DNA of 64,000 bases from Iphione sp. A-MEVVRFRX5 (lineage: Eukaryota). Made by a program: the position numbers and the translations under genes. Positions 24,716-28,908 of this stretch are shown in pieces (position 1 is the stretch's first letter; each line of letters opens with the position of its first letter). The notes beneath the pieces were generated by a model. That model ran no database searches, had not been told where the DNA came from, and saw nothing but the letters and a program-made list of their open reading frames with translations. The stretch spans positions 33,666,001 to 33,730,000 of the forward strand of contig OZ320319.1 of assembly GCA_976226885.1 (NCBI GenBank), written 5' to 3'.

Positions 24716-26997
24716 CTAGTACTGATGAGAAAAAAAAAAGGAAAGATAAAGATAGAATTAAATGAAAATGTCCATGCAATTAATGAATGCAATTGTAATT
24801 CATTTTTTTTTTCTACATATCTTATCAGAAAAAAATATTTTTTTAACACCTTAGGATAATTTCTCTCCATATACTGACTAAAGACTTATTATTCAGTTAT
24901 GTCACAATCAAACACATGGATAATAAATATATATATATGGTAAATTGTTTGTGTTAGGCTAAATAGGCTAAGTCTCGGTAGTAATATATTCATTTAAATA
25001 ATATATATAATTTTATATATATAGTTAGAAACCCATTATCTCACCTTGAGCCTGTCTGGTTTGCGGCGCTGTCTGTCAGTGCGTCTGATCGCGACATGTT
25101 CGTCATCCAGCGGAATCTCCTGCATTTGGTCTCCATCATGACTTAGTCCGTCATACTGGGGAAGCTCAGCACCATTGATGTCGTCGTCGTTGTTTACGGC
25201 ATGGAGAGGTTGGTCATCGTACTCTCTCGCTTCACGTTGGGGCTGTTGATCGTTCATCGCTGCTGGATTGACATCATTAGCTGGTTCCACCACTGGTTCA
25301 GGCTGAGGGAGATTCTTGGGGGCAGGTCCTGGCCGTTTACCCTTAGTTTGTTGTCCGGGTCTCGCCTTTCTCACTGGAGGTGGCACGGCATCCCTGGGTG
25401 CTGGTCCAGGTTGAGGTTCGTCTGGGACTGGTCTGAGACGTGGCTCTGAACGACGAGCACCCACTTGACGTAATTGAACGCGTCGCAGTGGCATCAGACC
25501 CTCTTGATTGTCCACAACATCGTTGAGCTCTGTGTCGACCTCTCTCACTCGACGGATTAATTCATCTCTTTAGACCAAAATAACAGCAAGTAGCAATTAT
25601 ATTTAATTTAAATTAAAAAAACAAAAAAAAAACAGAATTAAAAAAGCAATGTTTCTTGTTGGTTCTGACGATTTAAGATCATGCTCTCCATCAATTTTTT
25701 TTTTAATTAAATATACTATTATTGAAAATGCTACCCATTAAAGGGGGGTGTGGGTTACCACTGTGCTATTGTTTGACATGTGTAATTGCTCAGTATCAAT
25801 CGTGAAAAAAAAAATATATGAAAATTAAAAGTAATGGAAAACATACCTTCGTCTGCGTTCATAATGACGATTCATAAGTTCCATGAGCTCCACAACATTC
25901 TGCATCGTCTGACGGCGCCCAGAGTCATGGCAGACTTCTCTACAGCTGGGAACTTTCTTCGAGTTGCGCATGAAGCACATGACACACAAAGCTCCAATGG
26001 TGAGAAATACTCCAGCTGTGAGTACGCCGACAGAAATAATAGTAGTATATGATGCCTCTGTCGATGGAGCCATTCCATGGATCGGAACCATCACCGTGGG
26101 GTGGCGTAAATTAAGAGACACATACCCTATACCATCCTCACTGTCGTCAGCACTCCTTGTTCTCGTCGACCCTTCGGACTGGTAAGAGAATGTAGCCCAG
26201 TACATGTTTTTCGGCATCTCCGCTCCCTTGGTACTCGCCATCCTTTCAGCTGCAGTTACTTCACTCGGTTCAAGCGATGAAATCGGAAGATGCACTCTCT
26301 CTGTCGCCCTTGTACCACCGTTAGTTTGGGTTTCAACAGGTATGGGAACACGGGTCAACTCTTCTCTATTCAGCGAAGCGATATATTCTACGGACGACAC
26401 AGAAGATGGCTGCACGCCGACGGTACTGGCCTCGTTTTCATCCGACTCTGTAACCGGTGAAAAATGATCCTTGATATTGTCCTGGTTCTTGTTACGTAGA
26501 CCCAAAGTAATCATTAAGTCAGTGACGACTCTTCCGATCGAGCGAGTGAGAGATGATTGATTTTCATCGATGTCTGTTGCTTCACTTGTCTCGGCAGCTC
26601 TCCTCGCCTCTGAGGTGGGTGCTGATGCACCCGCCGGTGCGATGGTAGTGGCGTCGCTTGAGGACGAAGATGCGTTCTCGGTGGTCGGACAAGTTGAAGT
26701 GTCAGGTGAATCAAAGAAAATATCACTTATGCGTTGGACATTATCTCCTCTGATGCTTTCAAGCGAAGGGAATATCTCACGAAGATGTGCGGCCAGATCC
26801 ACAAGGTGATCTTCCAGGATTACCCGGTGAAGGATAAGTCTTTTCACTGAGTAATGGCGGTCGTGCACTGAGAATAGAAATGTCCCGGGAATAAACGAAC
26901 AGTACACCTCCTCATCCAAACATGTGCATCTGGCACATAAGAGACCACCTACAGACGGCGTGACGATTATGCTCAAAATGAGCATAAACAAAAGCAT
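24716..26997 (-). CDS. Type I membrane protein 1: signal peptide, LRRNT-like Cys cap, Ser/Thr stalk, TM, long cytoplasmic tail; spliced (26997-25847, 25567-25045, 24721-24716)
   Basis: MLLFMLILSIIVTPSVGG signal peptide, CARCTCLDEEVYCS cap, FPSLESI and a TM segment. Intron 25846-25568 (GTATGT...TAAAG) joins the start-less ORF 25036-25548 in frame. A second donor AAG/GTGAGA (25044) and acceptor (T)n CTCATCAG (24722) add a terminal Tyr. Product is 559 aa, or 560 aa if the last intron is retained. Confidence 0.75.
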
Positions 26998-27666
26998 AAT
27001 GCAGGTTGTCTTTCTCTATTAAATCGTTTTTCTTCTTACGGTATGTGTCTCAAGTCCACCCCACGGGTAATGGTTCCGATCCAAGATGGCGATGGCGCGA
27101 AATGACCAGAAGAAATAGGTTGCAATTACACCGATTGGGTCAACTAAAATTCAATGTAGACCTTGCAGGTGCGCTTTTAAAAAAATGCATCCCTAGCCAA
27201 AATAATTATCGGTTAATAATTGTGTTTCCAACAAGGAATGTTATTTATTTAAAGAATAATTTTTTTTTTAATCGGTCGGTAACTCCGGGACCTGTGTCTC
27301 GCTTCTATTGAGATTTGCCCCGAGAAAGATGGATGCGGTCAGACGATCGATGATGATGATGATAGCCCTTCACATAGGTTGACAACCCTTATTTAATCGC
27401 ACAAGATAAAAATTGAATCGAATCAGTATCGATTTGTATTTGTATGACGAATTGAAATAAGGCAGGACATTGTTGCAACTGGTCGTATCAATGATTACTT
27501 GCGTTTTATCATGTGTTTATCTGGTCATCGGATTGAGAATGCCAGTACCATGAACAATATGACCATTCTTTACATGAACTGTATATAAGACAATTATACC
27601 GGGCGGGCCAAAAAAGAGGCAGAAACAACAAGACGGTAGACTGAGAAACAATAGTAGAGACATATC

Positions 27667-28908
27667 ATGGCATACTGTATTCAATTATTCCGTGGAGCAT
27701 TGATTTACTTGGGTGTTCTGTCACTACTGTCATTTCACGTTGTTCATAATTGCCACCCGTTGTGTGCTCCTTGCTTCTCTCCCCGTATGACCTGTAGAGG
27801 AAGAGTTGATCCCTTCACTATTGATTTTTTCCGCGATCCTCTCATGACTGTTCTCGACTGGAGGTTGTGTATGATCAGTGAGGTACGTGAAAGGGTTTTT
27901 ATCAGTTTTCCAAATTTGAAATACCTGGATATATCTCTCTCATTAGTGAGTATGGACTGTAGCTCTCTAAGTGGGATTCCGAATCATGTACACATCATAT
28001 CCGATTGTAATCAGTCAACACCTCTCACATGGTCAGCACCTTCTACTGTATATACAACCTTGTCTAGACGAGAAACCTCCACATATATGTCTACTGCCCC
28101 CACTGCTACAAATTCTACTTCTACTGCTACTACTACTACTGCTACTACTACTACTACTACTACTGATAGTACAAATTCTTCTCCTCCTCCTCAGACTACT
28201 ATTACTGCTACTGATACTACTACTTTTTCTCCGTCTACTTCTTCTTCTACTACGTTTTCTCCTATTTCTTCTACTTCTGCTTCTCCTACTACTACTTCCA
28301 CTTTTTCTCCTACTACTACTATTTCTTCCACTTGGTCTTCTATCACTACAGCAGGATTGATTACTAGGTTTTCTTCTCCATCATCCTCATCTTCTTCCAC
28401 TGCAATCTTGTCATCTGCGCCTACCCAATGGTCTTCCAGTAAGTTCTCTCCTTCCTTTACAACAGTGACAGAACACTCTGTCACCAGAAATTCCTCGATC
28501 CGTTTGACTTGGATTATTGTAAGTTGCATTCTCTTTGTCCTTATTGTTTTTTCGGTCTCAGTCACGATTGTCGTAATAATATCAAGGAGACGAAGATTGA
28601 GAAGGAGATCCTTATCCTCGAGAAGCAATGAGGTTCTATGGGTGAGTATCATTTAATTTTTCATTGGTAGTAACCTATACCGATCGATATAAATAAATCA
28701 GACAGAGACCAAGTGATTAAGAGACATTTTTATTATTTCTCACTCTCATTTGAATAATACATGTACATATCATGGCACGATAGATGATAATAAATTTTTT
28801 TTTATTTCTCATTAGCAGGGAATCAGACTGCAAGACATACACGTGCAAGACTCTTCACATGAGAGGGAAGACAACATCAATCAAGAAGCGTACGAAATCA
28901 TGGTATGA
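27667..28908 (+). CDS. Type I membrane protein 2: signal peptide, LRR-like ectodomain, Thr/Ser mucin stalk, TM; spliced (27667-28641, 28819-28908)
   Basis: CHPLCAPC...MTC cap, TVLDWRLCMISEV..VFISFPNLKYLDIS LRR-like repeats, poly-Thr stalk, TM and RRRR stop-transfer. Donor TGG/GTGAGT at 28642 and acceptor TTTCTCATTAGCAG at 28818 add GIRLQ...EAYEIMV*, giving 354 aa. TATA GTATATAAGA at 27581. Confidence 0.8.

Follow-up and report, generated by a model that had tools for sequence, protein, structure and literature searches.

The 64,000-nucleotide window analysed here (contig OZ320319.1 of Iphione sp. A-MEVVRFRX5, positions 33,666,001 to 33,730,000 of the forward strand) contains a Polinton/Maverick element of 23.8 kb, in which two genes, designated A and B, stand head-to-head. 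We conclude that A and B are very probably genuine, selected Polinton membrane-protein genes; the pair is under purifying selection and co-descends with the element's putative capsid gene. As to their role, we lean, with modest confidence, towards an accessory module, conserved in one Polinton clade, whose products would be surface glycoproteins that modify host-cell contact or recognition in a manner analogous to adenovirus E3 proteins. The parts of the pair are as follows (LRR, leucine-rich repeat; TM, transmembrane).

Gene A exon 1, 26997-25847, minus strand: hydrophobic N-terminus, four-cysteine cap, LRR-like head, acidic Ser/Thr stalk, TM helix, start of the tail
Gene A intron 1, 25568..25846, minus strand: predicted, 279 nt, GT..AG, phase 2
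Gene A exon 2, 25567-25045, minus strand: Pro-rich acidic tail with the conserved RRxxRxRRxPxRL at its end
Gene A intron 2, 24722..25044, minus strand: predicted, 323 nt, phase 0
Gene A exon 3, coding part, 24721-24716, minus strand: Tyr, stop
Divergent spacer, 26998..27666, no strand: putative shared promoter, 669 bp from ATG to ATG
Gene B exon 1, 27667-28641, plus strand: hydrophobic N-terminus, minimal LRR head, stalk, TM helix, Arg cluster
Gene B intron 1, 28642..28818, plus strand: predicted, phase 0, tandem acceptors at 28816 and 28819
Gene B exon 2, 28819-28908, plus strand: ends in YEIMV-stop, or at a second donor at 28903; antisense overlap with the 3′ end of the protease gene

Occurrence, descent and selection of the gene pair

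An earlier note on this DNA had described the head-to-head pair within a Polinton and had called for a search for homologues in other Polintons; both the arrangement and its recurrence were borne out. When the 1.18 Gb genome (window included) was searched, each head gave at least 150 matches, and among the matches listed 17, the window's own included, are 93-100% identical. From the best-scoring candidates only, 40 loci were chosen for diversity from the head-match lists, and 20 more were reached via an outside relative. A and B lie head-to-head in 40/40 of the former, with the protease gene beside B in 38, and in 20/20 of the latter, where the protease adjoins B in 19. Combined, the pair is head-to-head in all 60 loci, whichever gene had fetched them, and the protease adjoins B in 57; no lone host-type copy occurs among these 60 sampled loci. 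Starting instead from the capsid gene, 95 matches were scored from 1468 candidates. By eye, 78 were matched to an A or B match, and the other 17 comprised eight copies with both genes, four broken or rearranged copies and five members of a sister family; overall, the pair stands beside 86 of the 95. The Polinton load of the genome is high: together with the 95 capsid matches, it includes at least three deep lineages and about 17 near-identical copies that stem from a recent burst.

The sister family (L061-L065) consists of five copies with about 92% DNA identity that lack gene A and the gene B ectodomain. Four of the five have a common junction, and four keep the B TM segment and tail exon, now preceded by a short novel N-terminal sequence. 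Three copies were traced to both ends, and each has inverted repeats and its own 6-bp duplication; two are free of stops in their integrase, ATPase and polymerase matches, whilst the third has a stop in the polymerase. Because these module-less copies carry target duplications of their own, the module looks dispensable for integration, complementation in trans being possible, and the element can probably copy itself without it.

Descent was followed in the 26 loci whose capsid match was full. Distances in the A and B trees correlate with those of the capsid tree (rho 0.55 for A and 0.62 for B; permutation p 0.001), and the capsid tree repeats 8/8 supported splits of the A tree and 6/7 of the B tree, with one conflict. 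Evolution is several times faster in the heads than in the capsid. In eight pairs with a capsid synonymous divergence (dS) of 0.6-0.9, the nonsynonymous divergence (dN) is 0.12-0.19 for B and 0.26-0.35 for A, against 0.03-0.05 for the capsid; the A and B dS values of these same pairs range from 0.9 to saturation. No pair has dN/dS >1 where dN and dS are both measurable, and the two closest pairs differ mainly by amino-acid changes in numbers too small to interpret. Across coexisting lineages, the heads are 18-62% identical to those of the window, and the capsids of distant lineages 50-57%.

Gene models, head folds and relatives

Gene A, on the minus strand, has three predicted exons and a predicted product of 559 aa; gene B, on the plus strand, has two predicted exons and encodes 354 aa if the stop at 28908 is the true end. 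The FP(S/N)L motif, the four-cysteine cap and a single TM segment, all noted earlier for both genes, were confirmed (best Kyte-Doolittle 19-mer 2.3 for A and 3.2 for B). The proposed signal peptides fared less fully: both proteins have a hydrophobic N-terminus, read by eye rather than by a signal-peptide predictor. Likewise, the long Ser/Thr stalk holds for B, with 60% Ser+Thr, and is weaker in A, where the proportion is 27% and the stalk is acidic.

That both genes are spliced is predicted, with support from conserved donor phases. We applied a simple donor score and took the best donor after the TM segment; some of the copies are close kin, and two A and four B copies with no TM segment in the first open reading frame (ORF) were excluded. 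The best donor is in phase 2 in 36/39 copies of gene A (100/345 among all GT sites there) and in phase 0 in 30/37 copies of gene B (94/271 among all GT sites there). In 28/39 copies of gene A, the long frame that follows has a best acceptor compatible with phase 2, and one of the predicted second-exon frames has no Met at all. The claim that each intron comes straight after a basic cluster needs refining for gene A, in which intron 1 lies 40 residues past the TM segment, behind a second basic run; that of gene B lies 20 residues past it. At the end of gene A exon 2, the RRxxRxRRxPxRL site has a donor score >0 in 21/22 motif-picked copies, against 14/97 polymerase Val codons that score as donors in a control, and one of the top three acceptors opens on the Tyr of exon 3 in 14/16 copies of the window's lineage.

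The C-terminus given for gene B is provisional, because the end of its exon 2 scores as a donor: the final Val-stop (GTATGA at 28903) is donor-like in 12/15 motif-picked equivalents, compared with the same 14/97 control codons. Gene B may therefore have a third exon after 28903, and hence a different C-terminus. In the window, the donor-like site overlaps the last codons of the protease, which weakens this reading. An apparent third-exon acceptor recurring 630-670 nt downstream was rejected as evidence, since it corresponds to a conserved capsid region read in antisense.

The head of gene B (about residues 29-114, some 86 residues) is predicted to be a minimal capped LRR domain with an invariant face. 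Its structural model (predicted local distance difference test, pLDDT, 92) comprises an N-cap, about two repeats and a reduced C-cap, and it also matches LRR structures. There are seven Cys-centred invariant positions among 15; four invariant Cys form the N-cap, the C-cap is cut down to two, and the strand residues L39 D40 W41 C44 are invariant in 33/33 aligned copies. A gene B profile matched 90 PDB sequences, and all 60 among the matches listed were named LRR proteins. The best single stretch (E 0.013) was the last repeat of TLR3, and the profile match aligned the C-cap Cys of gene B onto the start of the TLR3 C-cap; Pfam LRR_8 is weakly matched by 12/33 gene B members.

The head of gene A (about residues 17-100) appears to be a more degenerate, LRR-like domain, a reading that is weakly supported, so that the LRR fold put forward earlier is predicted well for B and less so for A. 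It has four invariant N-terminal Cys, and the alignment of copies holds no conserved C-cap Cys. Its top structural matches, at 16-17% identity, are the short chains of PDB 3rfe and 8wfs, which are also among gene B's top ten; these chains of 118-146 residues we take to be GPIb-beta and GPIX. A comparison of the A model with a viral structure library gave no match at E 0.001. Its FPSLESIRG recalls the insulin-receptor L domain; a receptor L-domain was not listed in Pfam, PDB-profile or fold searches, which does not in itself dismiss it. Three loci (L058, L070 and L071) carry the gene A head as two tandem copies. In distant lineages (L039-L060), the predicted exon-2 tail of A expands to 300-900 Ser/Thr/Pro-rich residues, and the tail ends in RRSxR in one lineage and in a conserved SPVFxSYRGIH motif in another.

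Outside this genome, a gene B profile search of 1.84 billion representatives yielded, among the 150 matches listed, 16 sequences with one whole-head match. In fifteen of these a Ser/Thr stalk precedes a TM segment, NxIY follows in 12, and six have a class I PDZ-like ending; the 10 that were looked up are singletons from ENA or Logan. A search with a single gene B sequence found no outside homologue among 122 candidates, the gene A alignment found no outside relative among 7259, and a wider gene B alignment brought back just four sequences, all of them its own members. Neither viral contigs, scanned with the capsid protein and with seven outside B relatives, nor metagenome contigs yielded a relative.

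For the idea that A and B are ancient paralogs, there is evidence on both sides. Their profiles align in HHalign at 51% (E 1.6e-4), versus 0.9% for a reversed control, and at a low threshold the match runs colinearly along 69 columns. Paralogy is unproven because the intron phases differ (phase 2 at 40 residues from the TM segment in A, phase 0 at 20 in B): the first introns are not one shared intron, as had been supposed. In addition, the gene A profile scores B-type proteins (best 6.5 and 10.3 bits) no better than unrelated LRR proteins (7.1 bits). An ancient duplication or two separate captures could each account for the pair. The divergent promoter of about 670 bp that had been suggested corresponds to the 669-bp spacer, and a shared promoter role fits a YY1-like ATGGCG word (near 27083 in the window), found in 24/32 spacers in one orientation only (shuffled spacers: mean 3.9, maximum 9).

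The host element

The element is a Polinton/Maverick. Its terminal inverted repeats (arms 19467-19557 and 43084-43237) begin AGTAGT (AG-type), and an identical 6-mer on both flanks constitutes a 6-bp target-site duplication. Between the arms, the core genes are all on the minus strand: polymerase, packaging ATPase, rve-chromo integrase, putative minor and major capsid genes and an adenain-like protease.

Whole Polinton/Maverick element, 19467..43237, no strand: inverted arms and 6-bp target-site duplication
Adenain-like maturation protease, 28898..29395, minus strand: Pfam Peptidase_C5 E 0.0027, under the curated cut-off; constant neighbour of gene B
Putative major capsid protein, 29376..30716, minus strand: 446 aa, assigned by position, size and conservation
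Retroviral-type integrase with chromodomain, 31475..32632, minus strand: Pfam rve E 1.4e-8 (above cut-off), Chromo E 8.4e-9
Packaging ATPase, 33483..34118, minus strand: Pfam Pox_A32 E 0.0076, under cut-off
Protein-primed family B polymerase with C-terminal NADAR domain, 34159..39003, minus strand: 1614 aa, motifs by eye, NADAR E 8.4e-12, PHROG polymerase E 0.0026

The protease and ATPase matches below cut-off both fall in the expected gene block. The 446-aa protein had no family match in Pfam, PHROG or PDB sequence searches, and its identity as the double jelly-roll capsid protein expected of a Polinton is putative, being assigned by position, size and conservation. Pfam polymerase families gave no match to the polymerase ORF, for which the PHROG match is weak; its family B motifs were read by eye. 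The NADAR domain lies at its C-terminus, and in distant lineages tblastn matches likewise extend to the protein end.

Two ORFs near opposite ends of the element (40739-41647 and 20968-21714) resemble each other distantly (about 23% in sister copies), and the former has a weak SOCS-box match (E 0.0078); they are possible ubiquitin-ligase adaptors. Three 32-nt copies of a short direct repeat (42952-43114) lie immediately inside the right terminal repeat. One distant lineage has an inhibitor-of-apoptosis BIR gene in its arm past gene A (L087, 6418-7098; E 1e-18). Outside the element, the window holds an intronless host rhodopsin-family GPCR gene (13186-14337; Pfam 7tm_1 E 1.8e-62), which points to an animal host.

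Candidate roles and known systems

Beyond the description of A and B as membrane proteins, every step of the role that we favour is something we infer. Both would be single-pass proteins displayed at the surface of cells that harbour an active element, with their heads kept away from the membrane by stalks predicted to be glycosylated. One divergent promoter would co-express them, and the heads would bind a conserved host or partner surface. The Tyr-containing tail of B may sort it through endosomes, whilst the long disordered tail of A, with its basic motif and spliced-on Tyr, could bind a partner in the cytoplasm or nucleus. The advantage would come at spread between cells or hosts, as reduced recognition by immune cells or increased adhesion, and not at integration.

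The earlier note had also preferred display on the host cell to display on the virion, and we likewise favour host-cell accessory glycoproteins, keeping a role on membrane-wrapped particles as a rival. On that unlikely alternative, A and B would be attachment proteins of such particles, or of capsid-carrying cell-to-cell junctions, possibly as an A-B complex in which the basic tail of A grips capsid or genome. The pair is indeed fixed at the end of the protease-capsid block, beside virion genes, it co-descends with the capsid whilst apparently not being needed for integration, and nematode Mavericks reportedly encode a signal-peptide single-TM fusogen and have been proposed to be enveloped (10.1101/2022.07.12.499685, 10.1101/2023.08.22.554363). 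However, no fusogen-like, fusogen-sized membrane ORF was seen in the element, heads of 80-90 residues on floppy stalks would differ from a fusion machine, and A and B are predicted to be spliced and have a divergent spacer of their own, in contrast to the unspliced capsid block. A doubtful further possibility is spread without a fusogen, by means of a GPIb-IX-like two-subunit A-B complex whose heads grip the target cell and whose basic A tail hooks capsid or viral DNA. If true, this would give integrated Polintons a fusogen-free route between animal cells and into the germ line. Superinfection exclusion or kin recognition, in which the heads occupy or remove the receptor of related Polintons or the stalks shield it, strikes us as rather improbable. 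The many lineages in one genome, with heads as divergent and fast-evolving as described, and the Tyr-based, sorting-like tail of B would suit it; the invariant L39 D40 W41 C44 points instead to one conserved partner rather than to lineage-specific ligands, no pair has a measurable dN/dS >1, and with at least 150 matches per gene any exclusion failed to stop accumulation.

Very unlikely, in our estimation, is a nuclear role, in which A resides in the inner nuclear membrane, or has its tail released by cleavage, with RRxxRxRRxPxRL-Y binding chromatin or viral DNA and the heads lumenal. The conserved basic motif and spliced-on Tyr, the RRSxR endings of distant lineages and GYNLR-like words in some of them prompt this thought, and the tail words resemble nucleosome-binding peptides, such as the CENP-C motif. 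Nevertheless, the tail-motif profile, a short query, matched no chromatin-binding PDB chain and no such Pfam family, the tail end differs in one of three lineages, and tails of 200 to >900 residues would be large for passage to the inner membrane. That the pair is a passenger, a recently captured or decaying host fragment, which the earlier note had named as one finding that would overturn its proposal, is by now largely refuted and can be regarded as extremely improbable. LRR caps and spliceosomal introns are host-like, and the five sister copies lack the genes. Yet the pair is kept across lineages with capsids only 50-57% identical to the window's, and no host-type copy stands alone in the sampled loci; since A and B are under purifying selection and their trees follow that of the capsid, they are not a recent host capture.

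A conserved, apparently dispensable surface pair bears on whether and how animal Polintons exit cells and meet host defences. Transcripts of A and B would show which cells have an active element, and the small heads could serve as baits for a host partner. The head of B would be a naturally minimal capped LRR domain with relatives in other datasets. If the spliceosomal introns are conserved in Polinton genes as predicted, annotation based on ORFs alone would overlook or shorten such genes.

The element resembles known Polintons/Mavericks (adintoviruses), for which the main text of PMC8502044 gives polymerase, integrase, packaging ATPase, protease and putative capsid genes, inverted ends and a 6-bp duplication. 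That main text names PLA2X, GasderminX and Cupiennin as accessory genes active on membranes, and it nowhere uses the words leucine, glycoprotein or splic- (PMC8502044). More widely, searches of the Polinton and adintovirus literature, at the level of listings, abstracts and text passages, brought up no LRR or mucin-stalk membrane gene module. MFUS-1 of nematode Mavericks is, like A and B, a conserved signal-peptide single-TM protein of a Polinton clade, but has 866 aa and a herpesvirus gB-like fold (10.1101/2022.07.12.499685), whereas the heads of A and B are small, of LRR type and mounted on Ser/Thr stalks, and the two genes form a divergent pair that is predicted to be spliced.

Human adenovirus E3 offers a parallel in function, and we claim analogy rather than homology. 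E3 proteins are described as divergent, membrane-anchored and dispensable for entry and replication; E3/49K, for example, is an accessory, fast-evolving, glycosylated type I protein with Tyr sorting motifs, in a virus with related core genes, and differs from A and B in its Ig-like CR1 domains and 19-residue tail (PMC4858740, PMC13437282). In architecture, the LRR head, mucin stalk and TM segment of GPIb-alpha in the platelet GPIb-IX complex come near, although GPIb-alpha has eight repeats and a far larger head (PMC8976409). The likeness to GPIb-alpha and VLR proteins drawn earlier consequently holds for the mucin-like stalk before the membrane anchor and fails for several tandem LRRs, the heads of A and B having 80-90 residues with two or three strands following the cap. 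These heads are smaller than the short chains of 3rfe and 8wfs and are carried on a GPIb-alpha-like stalk.
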